Origin: Leucoraja ocellata
Lineage: Eukaryota
Assembly (NCBI GenBank): GCA_036785375.1
Contig: JAWMAR010000252.1
Span: forward strand, 186,001-250,000
Reading direction: 5' to 3'
Length of the DNA stretch: 64,000 bases
This document shows, in pieces, positions 11,409-64,000 of this stretch (position 1 is the stretch's first letter; each line of letters opens with the position of its first letter). The notes below the pieces were generated by a model that saw only the letters and a program-made list of their open reading frames with translations, was not told the origin of the DNA and did no database searches. A program made the position numbers and the translations under genes.

Positions 11409-12379
11409 TGTAAGTTATTGGGGCAAATCCTCCAAAATCATGGAAGAACTCGGATAAGGACATGGACATTTTAAAAAAGACAAATTTGCTGGCTGCAACG
11501 AAAAAAAACCCCAATCCACAAACCTGTCTGGCATGTGGACTTTGGCATCAAACAACTGTGCGAATTGGGGTGGACAGGAACGGCTGAGACGGAGATAACG
11601 AGATTATCTTGGATACACAAAGGAAGGAACCAAGCCTCAGCAGACGGTGGTAAACAGGCCAGCCCAAGCTCAATCACCATCTTGGATGACCCATCCATCG
11701 AGACAATAGGAGCCCGTCCAGGCGATGGGATAACGATCAGGCTGAGGGATCATGACATCAGCAAACCCCTTATCATCGGATGCCTATTGTTCATGCCAGA
11801 TCGAAACTGGGAATCATCAAAAGAACCCTTTTCATCCAGAGGACCACCTGGAAGCTCAGGTATAAAACAGAAGTCAAGCCAGAACTCTTTCTCTTTCTTT
11901 CTGCCCTGCTGGACGGCTCGTGAGCCCAAACTGTAAGTACCCCAGTGACCTGGTGAAATTCCCGAAATAGTATAGAGGTTAAGAAAATATAGGGGGTAAA
12001 ATTGTGTAAAGTAAGTTTTACGACGTGCCCGATAGTTTTCCGTCCACAGTCTTAGTTTAAAGCATAAGTTTAGCTACGTATTATGTAGTGTTGGTGAGAT
12101 TCGATTTCTCATTGTTTAATAAAGCCTGTAAATTTTAGACTTGCTTTGAGTCCATCTTGGTTTCTGTTTTCTCTCATCAGCACACTCTGGTCAATTCAAC
12201 CTTTTATCATATCCCACCATAATTCCGAGGTCTAGAACCTAGGGGAATCCCTTTTGTTGTATTCTCTCTCTTGGAAACCGCTCAAGTGGAGTGGTGGCCG
12301 TTTGACCCTCTGACAAGGGAGAGAATAACTCGGGCAGTTGGGCCCAAAGTGAAATAAAGGGAAAGGCAAAACCCCTACA
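11409..12379 (+). mobile_element. Solo LTR of the env-bearing element at 58761-64000
   Basis: TGTAAG...CCTACA termini, 4-bp TSD ATAG on both sides, TATAAAA at 11861, AATAAA at 12118. Near-identical in reverse complement to 58761-59752. Confidence 0.93.
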
Positions 12380-20921: not shown

Positions 20922-21860
20922 ATGACCAATTAAAGTTAGTATGCAGGTGCAGCAAGCAATCAGGAAGGCCAATGGAGTTTTGGCCTTTATTGCTAGGGGG
21001 ATTGAGTATAAAAACACGGAGGTCTTGCTGCAGCTGTACACAGTATTAGGGAGACCACATTTGGAATACTGTGTACAGTTCTGGGGTCCATACTTAAGAA
21101 AGGATGTACTAGCCCTGGAGGCAGTGCAGCGAAGGTTTACAAGATTAATTCCTGCAATGAGGGGATTGACATATGAGGAAAGGTTAAGTAGGCTGGAACT
21201 CTACTCTTTGGAGTTTAGAAGAATGAGAGGCGATCTCATTGAAACATATAAGATCGTGAGGGGCCTTGATCGGGTGGATGCACCGAGGATGTTCCCAATG
21301 ATCGGGGAAACTAGAACTAGGGGACATAGTTGCAGAATAAGGGGGGGCTCTTTTAAAACTGAGATGAGGAAGAACTTCTTCACCCAGAGGGTGGTTAATT
21401 TATGGAATTCACTGCCCCAGGGAGCAGTGGAAGCAGAAACTTTAAATATATTTAAGACTAAAATAGATGGTTTTTTAGCTGCCAAGGGGATAAGGGGCTA
21501 CGGGGAGAGGGCAGGGATATGGACCTAGGTATGGTTAGTATAGTAAGACCTGAGTGATCTCCTGGACAAGTGTCGATCGCCTAGATTGGGGTCGGAGAGG
21601 AATTTCCCGGATTTTTTTCCCGAATTGGACCTGGGTTTTTATCCGGTTTTTTGCCTCCCCCAGGAGATCACGAGGATCTTGGGGTGGAGAGGGGTGATAG
21701 CGGTATAAAGGGGAGGGTAGTGTCTTGTGTTCTGTGTCTTGTGTCTACTGTTTGTGGGTAAGTGTGTCTGTTTAGTGTTCAGCCATGAGCGAATGGCGGT
21801 GCGGGCTCGATGGACCTGGTGGTCTGCTCTCGCACCTACTTTCTATGTTTCTATGTTTCT
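20922..21860 (+). mobile_element. Younger CR1 LINE 3' part (intact 195-aa ORF2 C-terminus) nested in an older CR1 (about 20811-22380)
   Basis: RPHLEYCVQFWGPYLRKD...LYSLEFRRMRGDLIETYKI...FFTQRVVNLWNSLP, (ttctatgt)n tail. The host CR1 resumes at accacactttgag. Confidence 0.9.
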
Positions 21861-31606: not shown

Positions 31607-32461
31607 AGGGCTTGTCCCACTGAGGCAACTTCTCAGCGGACTGCCTGCGACCTTCAAGCACTCGCCTGAAAAACCCCGAACTGGAACGGCGACCGTCATA
31701 CACACACACACATACACACATCGCAAAGGCGGGGGCCAGGGAAAGTGGGGTAGCGCTGTTGGAAATTCACACAGTGCAAAGCCAAGGTGATACAGACACA
31801 CACCGCGATGAACAGGAAAGTACAGTGTACGGTCAGTCCTTTAAAAGAGCAGGGGGAGGGGGGAGAAGGGGAGAGAAGTTGGGGGTGGGAGAAGGAGTGG
31901 AGACACTTTTAAGAAACCAGACAAGTTTTAATAAGCCAGAGATACCCAGCTGTTTAGTTTAGCGGGCGTTTAACATTACCGGTCAGTTTTCCTTGGTTCT
32001 GAAAACTCGTGCTTACGTTCCCCCCCCCCCCCCCCCCCCCAATGAGCCAATGAAAATGCCCGATCAGCAAAGATTAACAAAAACTACCTACGGCTACCTC
32101 GACTCCCTACAACGTCGCACCAAAATTTTTCATCATGTTGAAAATTTTTCAGCGACCAAAAATCAGTTGCCATGGAGAAAATCGATACTTTTGTAGTCGT
32201 AGGTGACCCCACTACCACTGCACCTACGACTACAAAAGTATCGATTTTCTCCATGGCAACTGATTTTTGGTCGCTGAAAAATTTTCAACATGATGAAAAA
32301 TTTTGGTGCGACGATACTGAGGCTGCGACTAGTTCCCAGAATGCGGGAACTCCTTGCGACCATGAAGGAGACTCAACAGAGACCACAAGTGACCATGTGG
32401 CGACCATGTGACGATCATGAGGCGAGCGCAGAGTCTCCTGCACTTGCCTAAAAAGTCGCCA
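31607..32461. mobile_element. Harbinger-type non-autonomous element with internal perfect hairpin
   Basis: tta|agggcttgtcccact left TIR; 93-bp perfect inverted repeat at 32113-32205/32221-32313; right TIR truncated. Confidence 0.7.
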
Positions 32462-34930: not shown

Positions 34931-35614
34931 AGCCCCTGTCCCACTTACGTGTCCTTGTCACGCTAATTACACGACTTTGGGGTCATGTTGAGCCGCGAAG
35001 GTCGCGAGCGACTTCATTCGACCGCACAGCCGTCTGGAGCGTGTGATGTTATTTGAAGATTGACACAAAATGCAGGAGTATCTCAGCGGGACTGGCGGTG
35101 TCTCCGGAAAGAAGGAATGGATGATGTTTCGTGTCGAGACCCTTCTTTCAAACTGAAGAAGGGTCTTGACACGAAACATCATCCATTCCTTCTTTCCGGA
35201 GACACTGCCAGTCCCGCTGAGATACTCCTGCATTTGTGTCTATCTTCAATTTTCTTGGCCCCATTCTGGGAGTAGAAGTGGGGACGGCTCCTGACCGCAA
35301 CGGCCGTAAGCCCCAGGCCGAGTTCAGCAATCGTTTGCCTGCTTTTGCTGCTGTTGAAGGTGGGACGTTGCATCGCGCCAGGGTATCGGGCCTGTCCCAC
35401 TATGGCCGTCAGTTCCGCGACAGGACGTTGGCGCGCAAAGTTTTCGTTCGCTACAAAAATTTCGGAGCCCCGCGCGATGTCGCGCACAACTACATACCCC
35501 TCCGCGCTTCTCATTGGGACCGGCCCCGCACGGCCATACGATGCCCGTGCACCTCAACGCGACGACGAGGTCGCGTAATTTGCGTGCCAAGGACACGTAA
35601 GTGGGACAGGCCCT
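34931..35614. mobile_element. Harbinger-type MITE carrying a Penelope/MER6-like foldback
   Basis: TIRs agcccctgtcccacttacgtgtcctt / aaggacacgtaagtgggacaggccct, TTA TSD, internal inverted repeat at about 35053-35249. Confidence 0.85.
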
Positions 35615-42017: not shown

Positions 42018-44257
42018 AAGCTATCTCCTTACCCCTGTCTTCAATCATAGTGGCTAGAGGAAAAAATTCCTTGAACGATATAATAATCTGCCACTACATC
42101 TAATCGAAAGCTACCTTACAGACAGGAGGTAGAAGATTGGTCCCATAGAAGAGGGTCAGAAGATTGGGCTGGATCTCTGAAGAGAGATTACTGCCAGAAG
42201 AATTATTTCCAGAAGAGAAACTGAAGACTGGTTCCTTGCAAGAGGAACTGAAGGAAATAGATCTCAGCCAGAGATTGGCTAAGAGATTTAGAGTCTACCT
42301 GACCGGTAGGTTAATGGAAAGCCGCATGACTTATCTGAAGATTGAAAACTTCACCACAAAATCAACACTCAGCAGAATGTTTATCAATAGTGACTGAAGC
42401 GAACTGAAGAGGCCCTGTTTGTCCAATTGTCCAAGACCTGTTTAAATCCTTGAAGCAAGTTGGAGCAGGTGAGTCAGAGGAGCCACAAGGTGGCGGAGAG
42501 AGGCCAAGATATGAGAAGAGACAAGTTAAACTCACCAAAAAGGCCCGAGTTGCATTTCTGAAAGAAAGCCAGAAGGAGAGAAGCAAGTTATGGAAGAAGA
42601 TGGTGAAGTTATTTGAAATCCAGAAGGAACTAATGGAATCAGATGAGAACGTGAACAAAGTGCAATCTAATCGGGGGCAACTATTCAGCCTTGGTAAAGA
42701 AGTTGGAGATAAACAAAAGGCACTGCTGGATTCACAGCCGCCTCAGGAAGAAGGCGAAAGATACACCCAATGGTTCAAAGAAAAGGTGAAGTTATTTGAT
42801 GATTCTATGGAAGATGTGAAAAGATGGTTAGCTGAAGTTGAACAAAGAACCGAGTGTGTTATTGAAGGAGATGCTATGCAACAAGGTGCTGAAATGGAAG
42901 AGGAGATTACACCGCATGATGGTATCTCAAATGTATCTACACTAAGATTAAGACATGAATCTGGTTCTATAGCCAGTTCAGTGTCAAGGACCTCTGCACG
43001 AATGGAAGTTGAAGCTGATCTAGTCGCTCTCTCAATAAAGCGGATGCCTTGGAGAAGAAACATGAGATTGAGCGACAAGAAGAACAGCTGAAAGAAGAGA
43101 TGAGGCGACAAGAAGAACAGCTGAGGCAACGAAAAGAACAGCTGGAACTAGCCACAAAGTTGGCAGTTGTCAAATCGAAGAAGGAGATAATGGAAAGTGA
43201 GGGTTCAAGATACGGCTCGAAAGAATCTGATGGGATGAGCTCTTATTCCAGAAAAGAAACTGCTCAAAAGGAAACAACAGCTAAATCAAATCCGCAGCCA
43301 GAGGATATCCGGCCTCGTGACTCAGAACTAGCACGTATCCAGTTGATAGGTGACAAAGCTTCATCTAGGCAACTGGGTGCTAGACCGAAGCAAAGTACTT
43401 ATGGAGTGTCTGTCGAGGCTCGGGACAAACCAGCAACTCAGTATCCCTTTCTGAGGCCTGATACACAGGCTCAAGCTAGCCATATTTCTGAGGCCTGTTT
43501 ATCATCTGTTTGTGCCAACCAAGGATCTCAAGGTGAACTCTTTGAATTGGCGGAGAATGAAGCTGAATTCAACAAGCTCATAGGACTACAAAATCTCTCT
43601 TCCACCCTACCACCAATAGAAATTCCTAGATATGATGGTGATCCTTTGCGGTTTGAAGCTTTCATAATGGCGTTTAACAAAGTAGTAGAAATGAAAATTA
43701 CTGATAAAAAAGAGCGCTTACGATTTCTGGTGCATTACACAAGCTGAAATTCTAAGGCTTGTAGAAAGTTGTCTAAATAGGCCTGAAAGCCAAGGCTGTC
43801 GAGAGGCAAGAAAGTTACTTAAACAACATTATGGTAATGAACAGAGGATTGCTAATGCATACATGAAGGCCTATGCTTGGAAAGATATCAAGTCAAAATG
43901 TGTAGGCATTAAGTGAGTTTGCGATATTGCTTAGAGGTTGTTGTAGATCGATGAATAATCTCGACCACACGGAGGAAATGAATCTGCTTAGTAATACTAG
44001 ATCCATCATTCTAAAACTGCCCTTTAGACTTAGAGAAAAGTGGATAGATAAAGCAGGCCAGATAATGGAAACGAAGAATTGAGTTGCCATGTTACCAGAC
44101 CTGGCGGATTTCTTGGAAAGGGAAGTACGGTTCATGTTAGATCCACACCACGGGAGTATTCAAGATCACAAAACCAATTGCAACTGTCAAAGGTTCTACC
44201 TTTACTAAAACTAAAGGAAGATCAGGACCTAAGGGAGGTAGTTTTGCTACCGCTATA
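42018..44257 (+). mobile_element. BEL/Pao retrotransposon internal region (leader and frameshifted gag), 3'-truncated
   Basis: Coiled-coil ORFs 42450-43747, then LPPIEIPRYDGDPLRFEAFIMAF...KERLRFLVHYT and IILKLPFRLREKW...LADFLERE..DP (DUF1759-type Pao gag). Confidence 0.85.
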
Positions 44258-45552
44258 ATCATCACCTCCATGTGGTTGAAATTTTTCATCGAGTTACAAC
44301 AACCTCTAAGAAATATCGCAAACTCATTTAATGCCTACACATCTTCTGACTTGATATCTTTCCAAGCATACGCCTTCTCCATGTATGCGTTAGCAATCCT
44401 CTGTTCGTTACCATAATGTTCTTTAAGTAACTTGATAGCCTTGCCTCTTGATAGCCTTGGCTTTCAGGCCTATTTATTCAACTTTCTACAAGTACTTTAG
44501 CATTTCTGCTTGTCTAATACAGCAGAAATCGTAAGTGCTCTTTTTTATCAGTAATTTTCATTTCTACTACTTTGTAAAATGCCATTATGAAAGCTTCAAA
44601 CCGCAAAGGATCACCATCATATCTATGAATTTATTTTGATGTTAGGGTGAAAGAGAGATTTCTTTTAGCTATGAGTCTGTTGAATTCAGCTTGATTCTTC
44701 GCCAATTCAAGGAAGCCATCTTGAGATCCTTGGCTTGGCACAAACAAATGATAGACAGGCCTCTGATAATCATACTGGCTTGCTCGAGCCTATGTATCAG
44801 GCCTTGGAAAAGCGTACTGAGTTGTTGGTTTGTCCCGAGCCTCGACAGACGCCCATATGTACTGTGCTTCGGTCTAGCACCCAGCTGCTGAGATGAAGTT
44901 TTATCTGCCCGCCACTGTTCCAATGGGTGTTTAAAGCCATGAAATTTGGTGATCCTCGGTTGTGAAATTGATCTCCATTTGAGCAGTTCTTCCTCCCAAA
45001 CAAGAGTTCTTCCCATGTTTCTTCTCTAAGGCATCCGCTTCTATTGAGAGAGCAATTAGATCAGCTTCAACTTCCATTCGAGCAGAGGCCCTTGATGCTG
45101 AATTGGCTATAGAACCACATTTATGTCCTAATCTTCGTGTAGATACATTCGGGATACTTTCTTGTGGTGTCATCTCTTCTTCCATTTCAGCATCTTGTTG
45201 CATAGCTCTTTCAACTGTAGAGTGCATATGTTGTGGTACAATTTCAGATAACCACACCTCCACCACTTCGATGAATCCATCTAAAAACTCAGTTTTCTCT
45301 TGAAACCCACCAATGACGAGTGGCTTTTCCCGGCCTCATGGCAGAGGTTGATTAATTGAAACAGATTAGATTGTACTTTCTTCACGTTCTCATCTTATTC
45401 CATTAGTTTCTTCTGGTTTTCAATTGATTTGGTAAACTGTTTCCATAAGTTGTTTCTCTCCTTCTGGGTTTCTTTCAGGTAGGCAACTCGGGCCTTACCT
45501 GCTTCTTCTCGATAAATGAGTTCTCTGTAGCTTTTAATTGACTTGTTAACTT

Positions 45553-48500
45553 TTTATTTTATTTATTTTATTAGAAGTGAGTACAATGCATTGGTACAAA
45601 AATTATGTTAACATATTACATTCTATGTACAACTTCCCTTTTTTTTAAAGAGAGAAGTGAGAAAAGAGAGAACAAAAAGAGGGTGTAAAAAGTGAAGAAT
45701 AGACTAGTGAGCGTGAGTGAAAAACAGATCAAGAAAAAGTGAAAGAGAAGGAATAAGTGAAGAAGGAAAGCAGGAGGGATATTATTCAATCGTCACAATG
45801 AGATGATTTTTTAAAATATTCTAAATCATCTTTCACCCATACCCGAAACTTTTAGTTTTCATAATACTATGTCACCACATGAATCCAAGAAATCAATAAA
45901 TGGGGACCAACCCCTTAAGAATTGGTCTTGTTTGTCTATTAGGAGCAGTCTCATTTCTTCCAAATGTGCTGTGTCCAGCATATTACTAATCCACATTTTA
46001 AATGTTGGTATATTAGCATTTTTCCAAAATTTAAGTATGTGTTTTGTTATTAACCCATAATTGAAAAATGAGTTTTGGTGTGTATTTAATTTGTTCCCAT
46101 CTCCACTTACTCCAAATATAATCATTTCAGTATTAGGTTCCATTTTTGTCTTAAATAGCTTTGAGAATATATCAAATATGTCACACCAAAATTTATAAAG
46201 TTTTGTACAAGAGACAAATGAGTGCGTAATATTGGCATTTTGAGAAAGACATTTATCACAAATGGGAGAAATATTTGGATAAAATTTATTCAACCTAGTT
46301 TTGGAATAATATAATCTATGTAATATTTTAAATTGAATTAAATTATGTCTAGCGTTGATCGAACATTTATGTATATGTATCAAATATTTTTCCCATGTTT
46401 CTTTTGAGATTTTTATCATTAATTATTTTTCCCAGTCTTCTCTCATTGCCTCTGTTGATTGTAATTCTATGTTTAAAATACTGTTGTACAAGTATAATAT
46501 TAATTTTTTTGACTCCGCCTTGATATTCATTGCTTCTTCCAGTGGGTCTAAAATTATACTTTGGAATCTTGGTATATATTTCTTCATAAAGTCACATACC
46601 TGTAGGTATTTAAAATATTGATTGGTATTCAATTTAAATTTAAATTTTAGCTGTTGAAATGAAAATACTTTTCCCAATACATACAAATCACCTACCTTTT
46701 TAATTCCCACTTTTTCCCATTGTTTATATGTTTTATCCATACCAGATTGTTTAAATACTGGGTTATTCACTATTGGTGTTAGCACTGATAAATTTCTTAA
46801 TTTTAAAGTTAATTTTCTTTGTTTCCAGATTTGTATTGTATTTTGTATAATTGGATTCTTCTTATATAACATATTATTCAGCTTTATTGGGGAAAAGATG
46901 ATTGCTCCTAGATCGTAGGGGGCGCAATCCTCTTTCTCCATTCTTATCCATTCCAACTGTTGAGCAGAACTGTCCAACCAATAAATTATATTCTTAATAT
47001 GTACTGCCCAATAATAGTATAGAAAATTAGGTAGTGCAAACCCCCCCACCTCTTTGGGTTTGCACAAGTGATTTATTTTAATTCTATGTGCTTTATAATC
47101 CCAAATAAAGTTAAAAATATTCTAGTCTAATTTTTTTTTTAAGTGTTTTGGTATATATATCGGTATAGATTGGAATAAATATATTATTTGTGGTAGCACT
47201 ATCATTTTTATAGCGTTTATTCTGCCGATTAGTGATAGTGGGAGCGTTCTCCAAAATTTAATCAGGGAATCAAATTTATTTAATAATGGTATAAAATTAG
47301 CATTAAGTAATGATTTATATCTTCTAGTAACTTGAATACCCAGATACTTATTTTTTTCCGTTGCAATTTTAAATGGAAATTTTAATAGGTGATTCGCTTT
47401 CTGGGGTTTTAATGACATAATTTAACTTTTATTCCAATTTATTCTATAACTGGAGAAAGAGCCAAATTCCTCTATTAGATTTAATAGATTTGGGATGCTC
47501 GTTTGGGAGTTTGTAATATATAAAAGTATATCATCTGCATATAGTGATATTTTATTACTAGTATCCTTAGTATTATATCCTTGAATATCTGGATGCCTTC
47601 TTATCCTTTCAGCAAGTGGCTCTATCATAAGTGCAAATAGCAAGGGTGATAAAACACAGCCCTGCCTATTGCCCCTCGATAATTGAATTTTTGAAGATAA
47701 TATATTATTTGTTAGTATTCTTGCCATTGGTTTATCATATAGTAATTTAACCCATCTCATAAAATTCTCTCCCATATTAAATTTTTGGAGTACTTTGTAT
47801 AAATACTGCCATTCTACCTGATCAAATGCTTTCTCTGCATCCAGAGATATAACTGATAAGTCTTCCTTTTCCGTTTTGTATGAATACATTATATTAAAAA
47901 GTCGTCTCAAATTGTTAGATGATTGTCTTTTAGGTATAAAGCCCGTTTGGTCCGGATTTATCAATTTATTAATATATTTACTCAATCTTCTTGCTAAAGT
48001 TCTAGCTAAAATTTTCTGATCTGTATTTAGGAGTGATATGGCTCTATATGAGCCCGGCTCTTCTAAGTCCTTATCATTTTTAGGTATTAACGTAATTGTG
48101 GATTCGGCTAATGTTTCTGGTAATTTATTTTCAGTAAAGGCATACATATATAATTTAAATAACCGTGGTACCATTAACTCCTGGAAACCTTTATAGAATT
48201 CATTATTAAAACCATCTGGTCCTGGTGTTTTCCCATTTTTCAGCTCTTTTATTGTTTCACATTTCTTCCCTTGTGATCTGTGCTCCTAATTCCTCTTGTT
48301 CCAAAATATCCAATTTTGGCAGATTACAATTATCTAAAAAATCTACAATTATATTGTCTTCTATTTTAATTTTAGACGTATATAAGTTTTAATAAAATTG
48401 GGCAAACATTTTATTAATATCCTGGGGTAACGTTAATAGTTCCCCATTCTTTGATTTGATTTTAGTAATAGTCTTTTCCTTCTCCTGTTTCTTCAATTGT

Positions 48501-49352
48501 CTAGCCAGAAGTTTATGTGGTTTATCACCAAATTCAAACTGTGCCTGTTTTGTGATCTGAAATAATCTTATTACTCTTGCCGATAATATTCAATTAAGTT
48601 TAAATTTCAATAATGTGATCTTGTTATGTTTATCTATAGTTGGGTCTTTTGCGTTATCTAATTCTAATATTTTAATTTCCTTTTCTAAAGTCTTTTGATC
48701 TATGGAGTTCTTTTTATTTTGGTAACTTTGATATGAGTTTATAATTCCACGTATAAATGCCTTAAAAAATTCCCATAATAAAGATGGTGAAATGCCTGGT
48801 GTCTCATTTGTATCAAAAAATAATTTCATTTGTTGTTTTAAATACTCATAACCTTGTGGATTATTAATTAACTGTGTATTAAATCTCCAAAACGATTTTA
48901 TACCTGGTGTTCCCTCTAGTTTTAAAGTAAAGGTCAATGGTGAGTGATCAGAAATAATACTATTGTGATATTTAGGGTTAATCGTATAAGGAATTAATTT
49001 TGTATCCACTAAGAAATAATCAATTCTTGAATAAGTTTTATGTACCGCTGCGTAAAATGAGTATTCCCTTCCCATAGGGTTGACTATTCTCCATACATCT
49101 GTTATTTTAGTGTTTTTTATATATATGTTTAAAAATTCACTAGTTTTAGATTTAACCTTACTCTTCCTTACTTTTATTGATTTATCTAAATATGTATCTA
49201 TAACACAATTAAAATCCCCCCCTAATATTACATTTCGGTAATTATACTCATCTATTATATCCGTAATTTTCTTTAAAAATTGGGGGTTATCAAAATTTGG
49301 TAATAAATATTTATCAGAGTCAGTGGTGTAGAATAAATTTCTATTAAAAAGA
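45553..49352 (-). mobile_element. L1-type LINE, 5'-truncated, disrupted ORF2
   Basis: Endonuclease YSRIDYF/SDHSP, RT LDAEKAFD/RQGC/YADD, C-terminal CDKC...HSFVSC, A-rich tail, 17-bp TSD AATTGACTTGTTAACTT (45536-45552, 49353-49369). Confidence 0.95.
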
Positions 49353-49403
49353 AATTGACTTGTTAACTTGATCCCATATCGAGTTTCCCCTCATTCTGGT
49401 ATC

Positions 49404-51136: not shown

Positions 51137-52074
51137 ACTCCGGAAGTGGTGGCGCTGTTGAACAGCTGCAGCTCGCCTGCAGTCCGTCTGTTTTTACTTT
51201 TTTTGTTATTCTTTTTTGTCTTGTTTTAGTTAAATTTTAGTTTATTAGGTTGTGCTATGTGTGGGGGGGTGAAACATGTTTTCTTGTCTCTTCCTTCGGG
51301 GGAATGCGACTCTTTTTGTCGTATCCCCCTTCTCTGCCTCCGTCTGCGCTGAGGCCTAATGGCTGAGCTGGAGGCCTCCAACTGCGACCGACCTCAAGGC
51401 TCCGGAAGCAGAGCCAGCCAGGACTCACCAACGCTGGCCGAATTCGGAGCTGTGGTGGCGTTCCGGCGTTCCGGTGGCGGCGACCCGACTCGAGGTTGAG
51501 ACGGTGCTCCGGTGGCGGCGGCATGACTCGGGGCTGAGGCGGTGCTCCGGTGGCGGCGGCATGACTCGGGGCTGAGGCGGTGCTCCGGTGGCTGAGGCGG
51601 TGCTCCCATGGCGGTGACCTGAATCCGGGGCTCGGCCGCGGGCCGGTGGACGACATCGTCGGGAGCTCGCAGGTCACAGGCTGGTGACCTGTTTTTACGG
51701 AGCTCCCGCGGCAACAGCTACGTCCACTGGACTGGAGGGCGGCAGCTTCGGCCACCCCGGGCCGCGGAGCTTGAATCGGCCCGTTCGCGGAGCTCGGTTG
51801 AGCCGCGGGACTGACTACCATCGCTCGGTGAGGTAACAACATATCGCCTCTGCACAGAGGGAGAATAAGGAGGGAAGAGACAGTGGCTTTAAGACTTTTG
51901 CCTCCGTCACTGTGAGGAGGTGCCTGGTGAATTCACTGTGGTGGATGTTAATTTGTGTTTATTGTGTGTTTTGTTATTTATTATTATATGTATGACTGCA
52001 GGCAACGAAATTTAGTTCAGACCAAAAGGTTTGAATGACAAATAAAGGAATCTAATCTAATCTAATCTAATCTA
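51137..52074 (+). mobile_element. GC-rich non-autonomous retroposon with (AATCT)n tail, nested in a SINE
   Basis: TSD ATATTA, internal tandem of about 39 bp (ggtgctccggtggcggcggcatgactcggggctgaggc), same ends as the 19060 element. Confidence 0.75.
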
Positions 52075-56385: not shown

Positions 56386-57652
56386 CATAGACATAGACAT
56401 AGAACATAGAAAATAGGTGCAGGAGGAGGCCAATCGGCCCTTCGAGCCAGCACCCCCATTCATTGCTTTCATGGCTGATCGTCCCCAATCAATAACCCGT
56501 GCCTGCCTTTTTCCCATATCCCTTGATTCCACTCGCCCCTAGAGCTCTATCTAACTCTCTCTTAAATCCATCCAGTGATTTGGCCTCCATTGCCCTCTGT
56601 GGCAGGGAATTCCACAAATTCACAACTTTCTGGGTTTGCTTCCTGTCTGCCAACCAATTTTCTATTTGTGGGCAGACAACCATCAGGCTATTGAACATTA
56701 CAGACAGCAACTAAATTTCGGACTATGAACTGTCTTTGTCGCAGTAGCGACTTCGGGCTTTTGTTATGTTTTGCACTAATATTGGGACTTTTTTTAATTT
56801 ATTGAACTATTTTTCTCACCTCAGTCTTAAATGGCCTCCCCTTTATTCTAAGACTGTGGCCCCTGGTTCTGGACTCGCCCAACATTGGGAGCATTTTTCC
56901 TGCATCTAGCTTGTCCAGTCCTTTTATAATTTTTATGTTTCTATAAGATTCCCCCTCATCCTTCTAAACTCCAGTGAATACAAGCCCAGTCTTTTGAATC
57001 TTTCCTCATATGACAGTCCCGCCATCCCAGGGATCAATCTCGTGAACCTACTGCCTCAATCACAGGATGTCCTTCCTCAAATTAGGAGACCAAAACTGTA
57101 CGCAATACTCCAGATGTGGTCTTACCAGAGCCCTATACAACTGCAGAAGAACCTCTCTACTCCTATACTGAAATCCTCTTGTTATGAAGGCCAACATTCC
57201 ATTAGCTTTCTTCACTGCCTGCTGTACCTGTAAACCAACTTTCAGTAACCAGTGTACAAGGACACCCAGGTCTCGCTGTACCTCCCACTTACCTAACCTA
57301 ACCCCATTGAGATAATAAGCTGCCCCCTTGTTTTTGCCACCAAAGTGGATAACCTCACATTATCTATATTATACCGCATCTGCCATGCATCTGCCCACTC
57401 ACTCAACCTGTCCAGGTCACCCTGCAACCTCCTAACATCTTCTTCACAGTTCACACTGCCACCCAGCTTTGTGTCATCCGCAAACTTGCTAGTGTTGCTC
57501 CAAATTCCCTCTTCTAAATCATTAATATATATGGTAAACAGTTGCGGCCCCAACACCGAGCCTTTCAGCACTCCACTCGCCACTGCCTGCCATTCTGAAA
57601 AGGACCCATTCACTCCTACTCTTTGCTTCCTGTCTGCCAACCAATTTTCTAT
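56386..57652 (-). mobile_element. CR1 LINE, 5'-truncated
   Basis: WLADRKQRVGVNGSFSEW...GSVLGPQLFTIYINDL...KFADDTKL RT motifs, CR1 3' UTR, (ctatgt)n tail. Confidence 0.9.
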
Positions 57653-58760
57653 TTGTGGGCAGACAACCATCAGACTATTGAACATTACAAACACCAACTA
57701 AATTTCAGACTTCGAACTGTCTTTGTCGCACTAGCGACTTCGGGCTTTTGTTTTGCTTTGCACTAATATTGGGACCTTTTTTTTAAATTTATTGATCTGT
57801 TTTTGTTTGTTTTATCAATAGAACTATCAAAGTTCTATTGAGTACTGTGTTTACTGACCTATTATGCTGCTGCAAGTAAAATTTAATTGTTCCATTATCA
57901 AGTGCTATTGAACACATGAAAGACCTAGGTTAAAATTCAACCTGGTTCCATTTCTGAGCCTCAGCTCATGAGATTCAAGGGCCCCACTTAAACAAATGGG
58001 AGAGATACTTACTCATTGTGAATTAATTTGTCACACTGGGTCCATTGTGGCTTCAGGGCCCTAATGAAATTATTCAGCGGCCTAATGTTAGTTGTAGCCT
58101 ATTGCCATTTTACCCTGAAAGAAACATATGACATATATATCCATGTGCCTACAGTGTCCTGTTTGCATGACGTATCTCTCTTTTGCTCTCCTGCAGGGTG
58201 ATATAGAGACATATCAGTTATGGTTGTAGAGGATGCCTACTTGGAAATTATACATACACGCATTTCTAATCTTTTCATTGCTTCAATGTAATATCCCTGC
58301 AAATTGAGAAAACGCAAAGTCGTGTGCAACTACAGTATGGGAATTGTTGCATTTGCTGTCGAATGTATGAAAAGCTGTTAAACAAGGAAATTGTGTTTGC
58401 TTTTCAAATCTAATTTGAAATGTCTAGTGAAGTGACTTTGTCAATGGTGGAGTAATGTTACTACTGCAGTAGGGACACAAGAGACTCACGATGCTGGAAC
58501 CTTGAAAACTTGAGCAATACAGAAACAACTTGTCGGAGGAACTAAGCTGAACAAGCAGCAACTGTGGAGACAAATGAACAGATGGCATTCCAGGTCGAGG
58601 TCCTTCTTCCTTCAGGGATAATGGAAAGAATCTGATTCTCAGAAACTGGGGTCATGGTGACCTACCTGGTTACATAATTCTCCCTGGTTTCATGAATTGA
58701 TGGTGAACTAGGTTCCAGAAACCAGTCTCAGTCTACCCCACGACAGAAGGGGAGGAGTTG

Positions 58761-59752
58761 TGTAGGGGTTTTGCATTTCCCTTTATTTCCCTTCGGGCCC
58801 AACTGCCCGAGTTATTCTCTCCCTTGTCGGAGGATCAAACGGCCACCACTCCACTCGAGCGGTTTCCAAGAGAGAGAATACAACAAAAGGGATTCCCCTA
58901 GGTTCTAGACCTCAGAATTATGGTGGGATACGATAAAAGGTTGAATTGACCAGAGTGTGCTGATGAGGGAAAACAGAAACCAAGATGGAGTCAAAGCAAG
59001 TCTAAAATTTACAGGCTTTATTAAACAATGAGAAATCTAATCTCACCAACACTACATAATACGTGGCTAAACTTATGCTTTAAACTAAGACTATGGACGG
59101 AAAACTATTGGGCACGTCGTAAAACTTACTTTACACAATTTTACCCCCCTTTTATCTTCTTAACCTCTATCCTATTTCGGGAATTTCACCAGGTCACTGG
59201 GGTACTTACAGTTGGGCTCACGAGCCGTCCAGCAGAGCAGAAAGAGAGAGAGAGTTCTGGCTTGACTCCTGTTTTTATACCTGAGCTTACTTTGAAACCC
59301 CCAGGTGGTCCTCTGGATGAAAAGGGTTCTTTTGATGATTCCCAGTTTCGATCTGGCATGAACAATAGGTTTCTGATGATAAGGGGCTTGCTGATGTCAT
59401 GATCCATCAGCCTGATCGTTATCCCATCGCCTGGACGGGCTCCTATTGTCTCGATGGATGGGTCATCCAAGATGGTGATTGAGCTTGAGCTGGCCTGTTT
59501 ACCACCGTCCGCTGATGCTTGGTTCCTTCCTTTGTGTATCCAAGATAATCTCGTTATCTCCGTCTCAGCCTTTCCTCCCCACACCATTCGCACAGTTGTT
59601 TGATGCCCAAGTCCACAGGCCAGACAGGTTTGAATCTTTCTTTGTGGATTGGGGGTTTTTCCGTTGCAGCCAGGAAATTTGTCATTTTAAAATGTCCATG
59701 TCCTTATCCGAGTTCTTCCATGATTTTGGAGGATTTGCTCCAATAACTTACA
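58761..59752 (-). mobile_element. 3' LTR of the env-bearing retroelement
   Basis: TGTAAG...CCTACA on the minus strand, preceded by purine-rich GTAGGGGCA; matches the solo LTR at 11409-12379. Confidence 0.92.
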
Positions 59753-60038
59753 TGCCCCTACGATACGTCCAGGCTTGCACGGACCATATCGATTGACAAA
59801 GTTAGTGGGCAATCCTCAAGCCTCAAGAGCTGTAAACACTCCTGGTGAGAAGGTGAAATTATGTACCCAGAAAGCCCCCTTAATTGCTAAACTAGGCCCT
59901 CAAAGCACATTAACTTACACTATACACCTTTTACTTTACATCAATCCCACAAACCATACAGTACCCTCACGACCATTCCCTGAAAACGCAGGGATTACAA
60001 CATATGTACAAAAACTATTGCACTAGAGTACAGACATT

Positions 60039-61667
60039 TTACAGTGATGGGATGTCATTTCGGTGACGTCGGGCGGCTCGATTTACCAGCTGTTGTAATT
60101 TGGCCATCCTCCTCCGCCTATTAAATTTGTAATTAATGCATAGCAAATACAGCACAATTATCCTCTGGCAGATGATCAGAACATGGGACACGATGCGGAC
60201 CCATGCTGGAACTATGATCCAGGACTCCAGGTCTCACCAACTTGGAGACTTGATCTCTTCGATCTCCCTGGCGTTATCCATAGTCTTTTGTTCCAGGGAG
60301 AAGAAGTGTTTGTGGGACAACTCGACCGTCACCAGCAACTCTTTTAATTTTTCATTCACTGGGGGAATATCATACCCAAAATGGGCAACATAGTTAAATA
60401 AGTCAGTTACATTTTCTCGTACCGAGAGGTGAACCGAAGAAGGTTCCGGGATGGGTAATATTCGCTGCTGTGCCACATGGACTTCTGCCCTGGGTTTAAA
60501 GCAGAAGCTGCTGTGCGGTATCGGGCACCACCGCTGTGATCCGTGCTGATACCGCTGGGCACTTGTGGTGACACAGTACGTCCCACTGCATATATACGCC
60601 ACCTGTGGAGGGACATGGTCTGCCGCCATCGCCTCCATGGTGCAGTTTATAGGCTGTGCCCCAACAACCCTGAACCCACACTGAGGCCTAGCCTCAGCGC
60701 CCATGTGCTGGGGACACAGGATTACCTGTGCTCCCCGGCTCCGACAACCCAAAAGGTCAATGCCTGTCACAGCTTGCTCCCTCACTATGACATAGGGCGG
60801 GACCTTCCCGTAGCGAATATGCACCCCCCCACGAACAACTCCCACGTTCTCCACTCGGTACAGAGGAGCTGGTCGTGCCGAGGTTCCCATCACCGGGATT
60901 CTTACAACCACTCCCATTATGGTGTGATTGGATTTTCCGCAATCCACCGGTACCGGGTAGGCCTCGGAGGCCACACGAAGCTGACAAGGACTCAAAGTGC
61001 TGTTATAAGGGTGTAGCGCTGCTGGGTGCTGGTTGCTTATCCAGGAGGGGACCCGACCTTGCCTCAGGTCTTCCAGGTTGCTTCTCCCCTCCCCCAACAA
61101 CCACACACCATACAGCCCACACACCTCATTCTGTGCAGCCTGATCGGACGCCTGATCGGACCTCTTTAATCAAAGCGTTTATCGTTTTTGCATGTGTCTC
61201 CAATTGTGCTATGATTTCTTTTAGATGTAGAGTCATTGCCACCTCTTCGTGCAGTCCCGAACCTACCACCGAATTTTCATCCCCCAGAACCTTTCGTAAC
61301 TGGCCCTTCAACTGATTGATCTGCAAGGCCAGTTCTACGTAGTCTATGCTATTAATAATAGAAGTCCCCGTGTTAAATGCTGTAAACCCGTCGTTAACCA
61401 CCCCTTGTCTTTACCTACCGGACCCCAAAGTGAAATCCCCTCCCCCGCGGTACATCTCTTCTATGTCTATGTCCCCAAAATCCAGGTTGTGGAATTTCTG
61501 GAACATGTCTTTTAGCAGGGCCTGATATAATAATTCCGTCTCGTGGGGGCACCATGCGGGTAACCGCACTTTCAGTCAAATCCGATGGACTCCTCCGTGT
61601 CCCCGTGATGCGCCACGCACGTCCGGAGGCACATCATTGCCATCATCCATACGGCGGGGCTACTGAT
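60039..61667 (-). pseudogene. env-like class I fusion glycoprotein (F-protein-like), disrupted
   Basis: Splice acceptor at 61668, hydrophobic leader, R*RQ|GVVNDGFTAFNTGTSIINSID (decayed cleavage site and fusion peptide), heptad region, Cys-rich domain, second heptad, W*DLESW, TM segment, basic tail. Contains stops and frameshifts. Confidence 0.75.
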
Positions 61668-61855
61668 CTGGAAAACAAAGCAAAACACCTCCTTGCCTCC
61701 ACAAAGCTATCCGCCTAAAATGGCATTTGGGGTTTTGATTTTGTCTGTTGTGGTTTACTTTTCCACAGCACATCCCTTCGATCCCGTACTGTCTGTCCCT
61801 GTACTCCCCTGTAGCTATACAAAACCCTATATCTAATTACGCTAACTACATCTAC

Positions 61856-62640
61856 TTACACACAAACCAATGCTATATACAACGCCACCCATCTCCGGGT
61901 GGCCAACTCATAACTGGTCCCCGTCACGCTGGGGCCACCCCTCTGGTGGGCCCACCCATGCAGGCCAGAACTCCTCCTGTCGAGGGGCCTGTCACTCCTA
62001 CGTCTGACTGGGGGTTCCCACACCAGAGGTGATACCTCCATCTCCTCTGTTTCTGCTAGTTCTACCTCTCTTAGGCAGTCTACGGTACCTGCATGCGGAG
62101 GGCTGGAGTCGGCCTCCTTCTCCGCTGCTTCCAGTCCTCGTCCCGGAACACAGCCGGCTACTTCAGGCTGACTACCTGTGGACTCGCCTGGCTCCCCTAC
62201 GGTTTCCACATCAACCCGGGTCTGTTCCTGATCTTTACCCCCATACGGTCCCTCTACCTGCAAATGGCTGCTGAGGCAGCCTTTAAAATGGGGTCTTGTG
62301 CCTGGATCGTGGTCAGGTCCGGGGCCAAAACCACTCCCGCACTCTCCTTTTCTCGAGGCTGCTCCCTGGCTGCAGCTACCTGTCCTTCCTCATGGGGATC
62401 CCATGCTTTCCCACTCCTGACTCCTTCTCTGGCCCTCTGATTTCCCTCGCCCCGTGGACTATAGGGCACCCCACTAGATAGAGGGGATGTACGGGGGTTG
62501 TCCGTGTGGACAATGCTACTGGAAGCACCAATGTCCAGCAGATAACTCCCGACCACATCCTGGACCTCCATCTTGACCCAGGGTCTCCCACATGGGCCAT
62601 ACTCTAACGGGCATAGGAATATGGGCTGTTTCGCTGGCAG
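61856..62640 (-). pseudogene. Internally deleted pol (half protease, RNase H end, integrase N-terminal stub, pol tail)
   Basis: YLLDIGASSSIV protease motif, GEGNQRA.REG RNase H-like C-terminus, DLTTIQAQDPIL, RRSDR tail. No RT or DDE core in under 0.8 kb. Confidence 0.7.
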
Positions 62641-64000
62641 TCATAAAGGTGCCGGGGGTGCGGATACGGGCGCGCCCTGGCCTGTTGCCATGGCTACCTG
62701 TCCGGACCCTCCCGCCTTGGACTGCAAATAGTTCAATAGATCTCTTACAGCTATTGTTCCCGGCAATGCCGCTCCCTTCTCCGGGGCTGGGTCGACTGTT
62801 ACCAGGGTCCTATCCCCACTGCTCTACTTGGGTTTCGGCACTCCCTCTTGTAGTGCCCGGGCTTCCCACACCCATAGCACACCAGCCTCATCTCGGATGA
62901 GGTCTGGCTGCCTTCCTGTTTCCACTGCCTCTTTTTTGGGGGTGCCGGTACTATTTCGTGCACCTTGCCCTTAAAGGGCTTCTCCTCACTTCTCCCCCCA
63001 TTGCGGTATGCAAGGGTGAACTTCCTGATCACCTCCGCCTCGTTAAGGTTTGGGTCAGCTGGGTTGAACCAGTGCTCGGCCCTTGCCCTAACTCGCGGGA
63101 GGCAATTCGCCACCAGAGTCTTCAGCCAGTGAGCTGTTCTCTCATCTAAATTCTGCCTATCTAAAGGCATCCCACATGCTCCCTCATACACTGCCCACAG
63201 CCTGTCTGCGAACATGTCCGGGGACTCAGCTACCTGCTGCTTTGTCTCCCCCACCCTGGTGAAAGGACTACCCTGATTCAACCCCATGGCCTCCAGAACC
63301 GCTGTCTGTGCCGCTACCCATGTTTCAGGTCTTCCCCCTTCCCTGGAGGTCACCGCCTTGCATAGGTATGAATCTAGGGTCATCAGTAGTAGCTTTACCC
63401 ATTCTACCTCATCGCAATCGTTTATGTCGGCTGCCTGCTGCACCTCCATAAAATGCAATGACGGGTCTCCCGCCCTGGTTAACCTGGGAAAGTGAGCCAC
63501 TGTCCCCCTCAGCACATGTGCCCCATGGGCAATGATGATATCACTCTCTATGGGCCCCCTATCTGCCTGCCCTACCGGGGGACCATATTTCCTTTGCCGT
63601 ACCGGGCACATCTGCCCTACCCAGGGCTGTTGCCCATTTACCCCCGGCTCTCCCACCATGAACGGTAACTCCACCACCTCGTGGTGTGCTACACATGGCG
63701 CGGAAGCCGCTAACTGAGGGTGCTCTCCCACCCCTCCTTGGGCCTGTCCCTCCCCGGACAACCCGAACCCCACCTGCCGACCCGGACCTATCCCCAGCGC
63801 CTCAGGAGGCGGTCTGGTCTATTCCCCTTTGCCCCTGGGGAATCATCTGCTGAGGGAAGCCCTCTGCCCCCGGGGGACCCCCCTGGTCCTACCTGGTGAA
63901 CCCGTCCCCGAGTCTTGGACAGAGTCTCCTCCAGCTGCGCTATCCTTGCCTGGCAAGGCCTGTGATCATTATCCACTAGCTCACTACGGGCCACCCTGTA
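62641..64000 (-). pseudogene. gag with CCHC zinc knuckle (runs off right edge; two frameshifts)
   Basis: CYGCGKPGHYKREC at 62838-62879; capsid-like helical region in ORF 62799-63773; ends at TGA 62641-62643 in frame with the protease. Confidence 0.85.

Follow-up and report, generated by a model that had tools for sequence, protein, structure and literature searches.

Several described retroviral systems share parts of their organization with an endogenous retrovirus (ERV) family of Leucoraja ocellata, one copy of which lies on the minus strand of a 64,000-nucleotide stretch of contig JAWMAR010000252.1 (positions 186,001 to 250,000; this whole stretch is hereafter the window) in the order gag(CCHC)-protease-deleted pol-env-long terminal repeat (LTR). 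Snakehead retrovirus (SnRV), as represented by reference locus L104, which is probably SnRV, is alike in its coiled-coil Gag with one CCHC knuckle, its in-frame stop codon between gag and pol, its arginine-tRNA primer site, and the C-terminal half of its envelope protein (Env), which aligns to the family profile (hhalign probability 81.8%). SnRV-like ERVs are described as clade Huo (PMC6001957), and one with env is reported from the elephant shark (CmiERV lineage I; PMC4422223). SnRV differs from the family in its primer (tRNA-Arg(ACG) versus tRNA-Arg(UCG)), its stop codon (TAG versus TGA), and the length of its Env (1134 versus ~785 aa, with no BLASTP similarity); unlike SnRV, the family leaves no space for a 3' open reading frame (ORF) after env, and an integrase grouping of the two is rejected (p=0.008). 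The lokiretroviruses (PMC7947760; lokiorterviruses in PMC9040795) are alike in the F-type (fusion protein-type) core of Env, which is the closest by profile, in integrase and tether, in an in-frame TGA between gag and pol, and in a dual RNase H (tether plus RNase H), which is common to all retroviruses and to lokiretroviruses. They differ in having a Gag without CCHC, no Arg primer site, and a long region before the reverse transcriptase (RT), whereas the family has a CCHC knuckle, an Arg site, and a short protease region; moreover, their RXKR site and hydrophobic fusion peptide come right after the signal peptide and F2, whereas the family has RQRR at ~330, a polar fusion-peptide region, and a ~240-aa head. 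An smc gene is optional in lokiretroviruses; in the family, a coiled-coil stretch was seen at the Gag N-terminus.

Foamy viruses and foamy-like ERVs (FLERVs) share a Class Ib (F-related) Env core with the family, and their RT is about as similar to it as any solved RT. The foamy receptor module is inserted between the Env subunits (PMC11468914), whereas that of the family would be N-terminal, and the family has none of the foamy traits of a Gag without CCHC, a pol in a separate frame, and accessory genes after env (seen in reference loci L130 and L132). The F proteins of paramyxoviruses and pneumoviruses are alike in predicted fold and in the predicted order of F2, furin site, fusion peptide, heptad A, beta domains, heptad B, and transmembrane segment, but they are only 8-14% identical and work with a separate attachment protein, in contrast to the family's own N-terminal module. 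Lastly, the IgV-like receptor-binding domain of gammaretroviruses (bioRxiv 2024.03.17.585361) is an immunoglobulin (Ig)-like domain at the Env N-terminus that serves there in receptor binding; it is carried, however, by a gamma-type Env whose fusion machinery is of another kind.

Weighing the envelope, pol, and gag data together, it is reasonably probable that the family is part of a deep branch of Retroviridae outside the lokiretroviruses (including shark, skate, frog, and coelacanth 'NYNRIN-like' Pols, and near SnRV) with an F-type Env that likely bears an Ig head. The family works like a lokiretrovirus at the envelope, yet fails the defining Loki RT test. Related chondrichthyan ERVs have already been published from pol, while the full anatomy and mixed affinities appear to be undescribed in the literature covered. 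The window copy alone is an ordinary dead provirus; the combination of a retrovirus-type RT, a Loki-like integrase, and an F-type Env, together with the F-type matches of snakehead-like and walleye retrovirus Envs, allows trees to be used to test whether this type of Env is the ancestral one.

Predicted envelope fold and N-terminal head

Single-sequence searches with the family Env returned no matches. A search of 1.84 billion representatives recovered 48 Env homologs, and the 13 named entries among 15 looked up (the other 2 are unnamed) all came from sharks, one skate, and frogs, in keeping with the cartilaginous-fish host proposed in a preliminary description made from the window sequence. 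An AlphaFold model from 46 sequences (alignment A2 has 46 rows, with fused mis-annotated proteins excluded) reached a mean pLDDT of 61, with values of 80-94 across much of the F core. Its top Protein Data Bank (PDB) matches were the F proteins of hPIV3, RSV, and Langya virus (a henipavirus), with Foldseek E values of 8e-10 to 5e-9 and TM-scores by target of 0.38-0.46; the large rmsd (15-30 A) is what would be anticipated when a protein that refolds is modelled as a monomer. In a viral structure library the model matched lispivirus, baculovirus, and paramyxovirus glycoproteins; the Envs of walleye epidermal hyperplasia and dermal sarcoma viruses (epsilonretroviruses) ranked 2 and 18, and that of feline foamy virus ranked 46. 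The family Env is accordingly predicted from its modelled fold to be a paramyxovirus/pneumovirus F-type fusogen, as the preliminary description had proposed from motifs; the direct profile match that would have accompanied it was not obtained, the best PF00523 match being E=0.1 on a second env family of the same genome and those on the control Envs of two Loki-type loci (L133 and L134) being E 1e-5 and 2e-3.

The best PDB matches of the A2 profile were to foamy Env, led at E 2e-4 by 8OZH, which we take to be a foamy Env, and followed by 8RM1 and 8RM0. The latter two are foamy Env structures, and the F core is common to foamy Env as well (PMC11468914). Among 163 ORFs of the reference loci, the same profile gave 46-52 bits to Loki Env, at most 23 to foamy Env, and 6 (best domain) to the Env of L104, the locus taken as SnRV; gamma-type Envs in this set received no significant score. 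The hhalign probability of the family Env profile was 97.7% against Loki Env and 81.8% against L104 Env. Identity to Loki Env is only 18%, and the residues that follow the cleavage site have a mean hydropathy of 0.08 in the family, 1.50 in Loki, and -0.04 in L104. A Pfam search for the gamma-type TLV_coat domain gave no match on the family Env, in agreement with the earlier remark that a gamma-type transmembrane subunit signature is missing. Since F-type Envs are detected in foamy, snakehead-like, and walleye retroviruses too, such an Env is not diagnostic of lokiretroviruses, and the earlier premise that it is special to them falls. In the L104 Env (L104:6131-9532), an Ig-like Cys/Trp spacing is seen by eye at the N-terminus, ahead of the C-terminal half that aligns to the F-type profile; a single literature search returned no paper on an F-type SnRV Env.

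Fuller copies of the family carry an extra head of ~240 aa at the Env N-terminus. In L009, which keeps the env block with one in-frame stop (~785 aa), the order is signal peptide, head, F2-like part, RQRR at ~330, F1-like part, transmembrane segment, and tail; the cleavage site near the N-terminus, regarded in the preliminary description as a trait of the element, results from a ~730-nt env deletion in the window copy. Head and F core are covered by a single contig in independent run X2, and their fusion is therefore not an assembly artefact. It is quite likely that the head holds an Ig-fold domain. Language-model neighbours of the whole head all belong to the Ig clan (0.90-0.91, with low recognition value), as do those of the segment from homolog P0026 (0.92-0.94). 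Weak Ig Pfam matches occur on 2 of 31 Env homologs (Ig_3 on P0026, E=0.0085; V-set on P0047, E=0.045), homolog P0031 carries the UniRef name 'Ig-like domain-containing', and the head is modelled by AlphaFold as beta-rich. Among 39 copies, variants shared by at least 2 gave omega values of 0.33 for the Ig segment (9 nonsynonymous, N, and 8 synonymous, S, changes), 0.42 for F2, 0.34 for F1 (72 N, 66 S), 0.70 for the signal/N-terminal part, and 0.57 for the transmembrane segment and tail, and private variants gave 0.58-1.76 across env segments (0.67 for the Ig segment, 0.82 for F1), all values that duplicated loci and CpG decay may bias.

Other Env homologs combine the same F core with varied heads, which are Cys-rich (P0030, P0042), V-set-like (P0047), or absent (P0062), and these different N-termini on one core suggest, from sequence comparison, that Env homologs swap heads. 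In the frog Mantella aurantiaca, many near-identical 677-aa Env homologs occur on several chromosomes (P0060 cluster, 16 members), which suggests a recently active relative. The L. ocellata genome contains at least two further, divergent env families of the same kind, with ~60% identity (L045 and L046, on C67 and C595) and 26-29% identity (L047-L049, on C345 and C691); the first is 84-92% identical to Rhinoraja longicauda protein P0025, as would fit a skate-like host. The literature search found no paper describing a retroviral Env of F type with an Ig head, a weak negative given that subscription journals and Repbase were not covered, and the accessible portion of bioRxiv 2021.11.23.469661 reports gamma-type Env only.

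Phylogenetic position and competing explanations

Reference loci were fetched by motif and comprised L104, gamma-type and class I loci, 16 foamy-type, three Loki-type, and four putative Gypsy-type outgroups; the L132 Env is PF03408. L104 was identified as probable SnRV, its 10,688 nt being the SnRV length given in PMC12193657. The Loki references L133 and L134 have Envs that match PF00523 and resemble published Loki Env by eye, and they share the Loki-Bsp primer site. The closest named RT relatives of the family, at 50-54%, are frog and coelacanth Pols labelled 'NYNRIN-like' or 'Gypsy integrase-like'; of the viral references, L104 has the most similar RT (45%). With the intact relative P0009 as query, RT bit scores were 190 for L104, 160 for a reference locus that we take to be ZFERV-like, 124-144 for foamy, 127-128 for Loki, and 44-78 for Gypsy-type loci. 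Tether scores ran in a different order (Loki 122-127, Gypsy-type 92-107, gamma 74-83, L104 59, foamy 14-27), and integrase scores were 200-202 for Loki, 123 for L104, and 102-112 for foamy. Before YVDD, the family and its relatives carry PQG, whereas the Loki Pols seen carry PFG; LPQG has 0 occurrences in the readable part of the PMC7947760 supplement.

Trees were built with LG+G4 (RT, 30 rows; integrase, 26 rows; RT+tether, 28 rows and 433 columns). In the RT tree the clade is supported at 100/1 and is sister to L104 at 88.9/0.984, with Loki outside. The best RT+tether tree places the family and the frog/coelacanth Pols as the first branch of Retroviridae (79.8/67), again with Loki outside, and supports the clade's own monophyly weakly. 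In the integrase tree, for which no CGIN1 sequence was included, Loki is nested among the frog/coelacanth rows at 97.4/1. The approximately unbiased (AU) test rejects a grouping of the clade with Loki on RT+tether (p=0.0006) and on the tether alone (p=0.031), with 2-3 Loki references in these data sets; constrained searches were short, which slightly lowers their likelihoods. A 51-row PMSF (posterior mean site frequency) quick tree did not resolve the family, L104, and Loki and carried a long-branch attraction warning. In these trees, the family falls outside the class I (gamma/epsilon) clade. Outside pol, the CCHC motif is present in the Gags of the family and L104 and absent from those of L133, L134, L130, and L132; the gag/pol junction reads TGA-CTG in all 27 locus records matching its flanks (~21 distinct copies), with an in-frame TAG in L104 and TGA in L134; and the primer site agrees with tRNA-Arg(TCG) genes over 18/18 bases in 3 copies and 16/18 in the window's copy, while that of L104 matches tRNA-Arg(ACG).

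Several results weigh against a deep non-loki branch with an Ig-headed F-type Env. The family's own copies gave no Pfam Ig match, profile A4 gave no Ig match in the PDB, and the family head had no significant hhalign match to 8 other N-terminal segments; in addition, model pLDDT is ~45-60 in the head, and the omega value of the Ig segment is based on 9 N and 8 S changes only. The Env profile scores Loki Env far above foamy and L104 Env. On RT alone, the AU test leaves the clade with Loki unrejected (p=0.085), and on RT+tether it leaves unrejected the clade with foamy (p=0.23) and with snakehead-like viruses (p=0.26) as well as the clade basal to all other retroviruses. The integrase AU test rejects the clade with snakehead-like viruses to the exclusion of Loki (p=0.008), and the sampling of the RT+tether tree was limited to 2 sequences for Loki, with Odin, ERV-L, and fish foamy-like viruses unrepresented.

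These mixed signals could be explained by recombination, with a snakehead-retrovirus-like gag, protease, and RT joined to a lokiretrovirus-type integrase-env block, or with the family as donor of that block to Loki; such an origin is considered unlikely, although it survives better than the other alternatives. It would account for the nesting of Loki within the clade in the best integrase tree, the high integrase scores to Loki, and the proximity of the Env profile to Loki Env rather than L104 Env, all the more as integrase adjoins env, and Loki integrase groups with CGIN1/NYNRIN, the name given to the clade's Pols (PMC7947760). However, the integrase AU test leaves unrejected trees that unite all retroviruses, including the clade, without Loki (p=0.52) or that keep the clade without Loki (p=0.078), and Env identity to Loki is low. 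The tether, moreover, scores closest to Loki and yet rejects the grouping, so similarity of this kind can be retained ancestry.

It is rather improbable, and somewhat more so than recombination, that the family instead shows in full-genome form the basal 'foamy-like' clade of shark and frog (CmiFLERV/XtrFLERV), known from pol only. That clade of shark and Xenopus FLERVs (PMC5512871) fits the host range seen here, in the PDB the RT matches foamy RTs best (E 5e-44, versus 5e-31 for MLV and 2e-26 for Ty3), foamy Env leads the PDB matches of the Env profile, and the clade with foamy is not rejected (AU p=0.19-0.23 over the trees tested), although this grouping is absent from the best trees. The RT ranking is biased by the lack of a snakehead or Loki RT in the PDB, and with L104 available foamy RT ranks lower; the family also departs from spumaretroviruses in its CCHC-bearing Gag, in a gag/pol stop that is in frame, in its Arg primer site, in an Env that starts with a signal peptide, and in having only ~290 nt between env and LTR. 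The foamy-like explanation may in any case be a relabelling of the deep-branch explanation rather than a true alternative.

A true lokiretrovirus, the first in Chondrichthyes, would fit the F-type Env, the dual RNase H, the Loki-like integrase and tether, the in-frame TGA shared with L134, and the gap left by 0 of 6 chondrichthyan genomes being positive in PMC7947760, but this is very improbable and largely ruled out by the RT+tether AU result, and it also conflicts with the PQG motif, the short protease region (versus ~600 aa before RT in L133/L134), the CCHC knuckle, the different primer site, the polar region after the cleavage site, and a bullfrog relative (P0013) that by eye is plainly not the published Loki-Rca. 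The earlier proposal of a lokiretrovirus or sister lineage thus fails as to membership and survives in part as to sisterhood, integrase and Env core being closest to Loki; in the best RT tree, with Loki, foamy, and Gypsy included, the family lies apart from Loki and is neither class I nor Gypsy. Metaviridae (Gypsy/errantivirus) were rejected on the dual RNase H of the longest copy, L041, and on RT scores of 44-78 bits to Gypsy-type loci versus 124-190 to foamy, ZFERV-like, and snakehead-like RTs, and a gamma/epsilon class I ERV was rejected because RT lies outside that clade and no TLV_coat match was obtained.

Returning to a deep non-loki branch, a bolder extension is offered tentatively and is on balance doubtful: that the clade contains the earliest-branching true retroviruses, which kept an ancestral tether, integrase, and F-type Env shared with Loki and captured a host Ig head as a swappable receptor-binding module. 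If the clade is truly basal, the F-type Envs of foamy, snakehead, and walleye retroviruses would imply that retroviruses descend from a last common ancestor that used a paramyxovirus-like F protein for cell entry, and that gamma/beta-type Envs came later. Four scenarios for the origin of retroviral Env are listed in PMC7947760, and independent gains in lokiretroviruses and canonical retroviruses are preferred in PMC9040795. The family would also supply a retroviral example for a slot in PMC11468914, in which a receptor module is attached at the N-terminus of a minimal F scaffold.

Proposed life cycle, deleted copies, and age

In the proposed life cycle, Gag-Pol would be made by UGA read-through, and reverse transcription would be primed by tRNA-Arg(UCG). 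Env would be led by its signal peptide and cleaved by furin at RQRR into head+F2 and F1. By analogy with N-terminal modules on F scaffolds (PMC11468914) and with the gammaretroviral IgV-like domain, the head probably binds the cell as a module on a minimal F scaffold, and F1 is predicted to refold into a heptad hairpin, leading to membrane fusion. Shared env variants under purifying selection suggest that the family spread at least partly by reinfection, and deleted subfamilies such as that of the window copy were probably copied in trans by fuller helpers. The primer-binding site (L031:1510-1535) lies inside the gag open frame and itself contains ATG codons only two bases past the 5' LTR, which may make for an unusually short leader. 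The window copy's primer site also matches 18/18 an intron-bearing variant gene (L072) called tRNA-Gly by ARAGORN.

The window copy is a dead, internally deleted member of the family. L041 has the Pfam domain order protease, RT (PF00078), tether (PF17919/PF17917), RNase H (PF00075), and integrase; relative to it, the window pol is without ~2.16 kb at 62457, ~1.15 kb at 62232, and ~0.19 kb at 61990, so that RT, the tether, and the integrase core are missing, as is most of RNase H, and the env is without ~730 nt at ~61579. The env block is kept in 11 of 30 env loci and missing in 19, and because 11 of these 19 share the window's junction, which is also present in run X7, the window copy belongs to a deleted subfamily. 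In the 3.44-Gb assembly, the env fragment gave at least 129 matches (from 127 of 180 candidates scored) and the LTR piece at least 771 first-look candidates (40 scored), both of which are lower bounds and not copy numbers. Kimura two-parameter (K2P) distances between LTRs ranged from 0.010 to 0.045 across 12 pairs. The 0.027 of the window provirus corresponds to ~60 My at 2.2e-10 (the rate used in PMC4422223) or ~6 My at 2.2e-9 (PMC7947760), and these two published rates bracket its age.

Annotated features of the window

The anatomy given in the preliminary description (gag-pro-deleted pol-env-LTR, a ~1-kb LTR, and a 4-bp target-site duplication (TSD) at a solo LTR) was found throughout, as were the env motifs it quoted in an env now disrupted by stops and frameshifts. 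The 5' LTR lies just past the window edge in the neighbouring stretch (L031:1534-2569), as do the coiled-coil Gag N-terminus and the Arg-tRNA primer site, and a TSD distinct from that of the solo LTR flanks the whole provirus. The CCHC knuckle is at ~62835-62882 (zf-CCHC, Pfam E=1.1e-4). No long polypurine tract precedes the 3' LTR at 59753-59780, where only a short G run is seen.

Features of the provirus and of a related solo LTR, in window coordinates
Feature	Position	Strand	Remark
3' copy of 4-bp TSD, CAAC on element strand	58757..58760	-	5' copy precedes 5' LTR outside window
3' LTR, 992 bp, TG..CA	58761..59752	-	K2P 0.027 to 5' LTR
env C-terminus: transmembrane helix and basic tail	60039..60233	-	In-frame stop severs both from ectodomain
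env F1-like ectodomain, 311-aa open frame	60234..61169	-	End of heptad A, Cys-rich beta domains, heptad B
env F2-like remnant, weakly hydrophobic fusion-peptide region, heptad A	61170..61580	-	Frameshift near 61170
Broken furin-type site of env	~61405-61416	-	Inside F2-like remnant 61170..61580
Junction of ~730-nt env deletion	61577..61581	-	Removes Ig-like head, stalk, first F2 strand
env 5' end: likely signal-peptide region	61582..61667	-	
pol remnants between three deletions relative to L041	61990..62457	-	
Protease 5' part	62458..62640	-	Aspartyl motif DIG in window, DTG in L041
gag/pol junction: in-frame TGA, then CTG	62641..62643	-	Likely read-through
gag: capsid-like region and single CCHC knuckle	62799..64000	-	Continues outside window into L031
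Solo LTR of same family	11409..12379	+	TSD ATAG; K2P 0.036-0.042 to provirus LTRs

Elsewhere in the window, ORF fragments at 45862-49390 (minus strand), 56400-57700, and 20926-21525, with endonuclease/RT-like motifs and CR1-like 3' ends, are presumably LINE-like. Nested inverted repeats with arms of up to 237 nt surround 44100 (within 42019-45496), beside ORFs at 42408-43744 that include a coiled-coil segment. At 51456-51647, 32113-32313, and 35068-35235 lie a tandem array of a GC-rich 38-nt unit and two near-perfect hairpins with arms of 93 and 80 nt. In the wider genome, a very abundant and apparently young class I-like ERV family (L097-L103, L150) has Pol open frames of up to 1335 aa and occurs on dozens of contigs.

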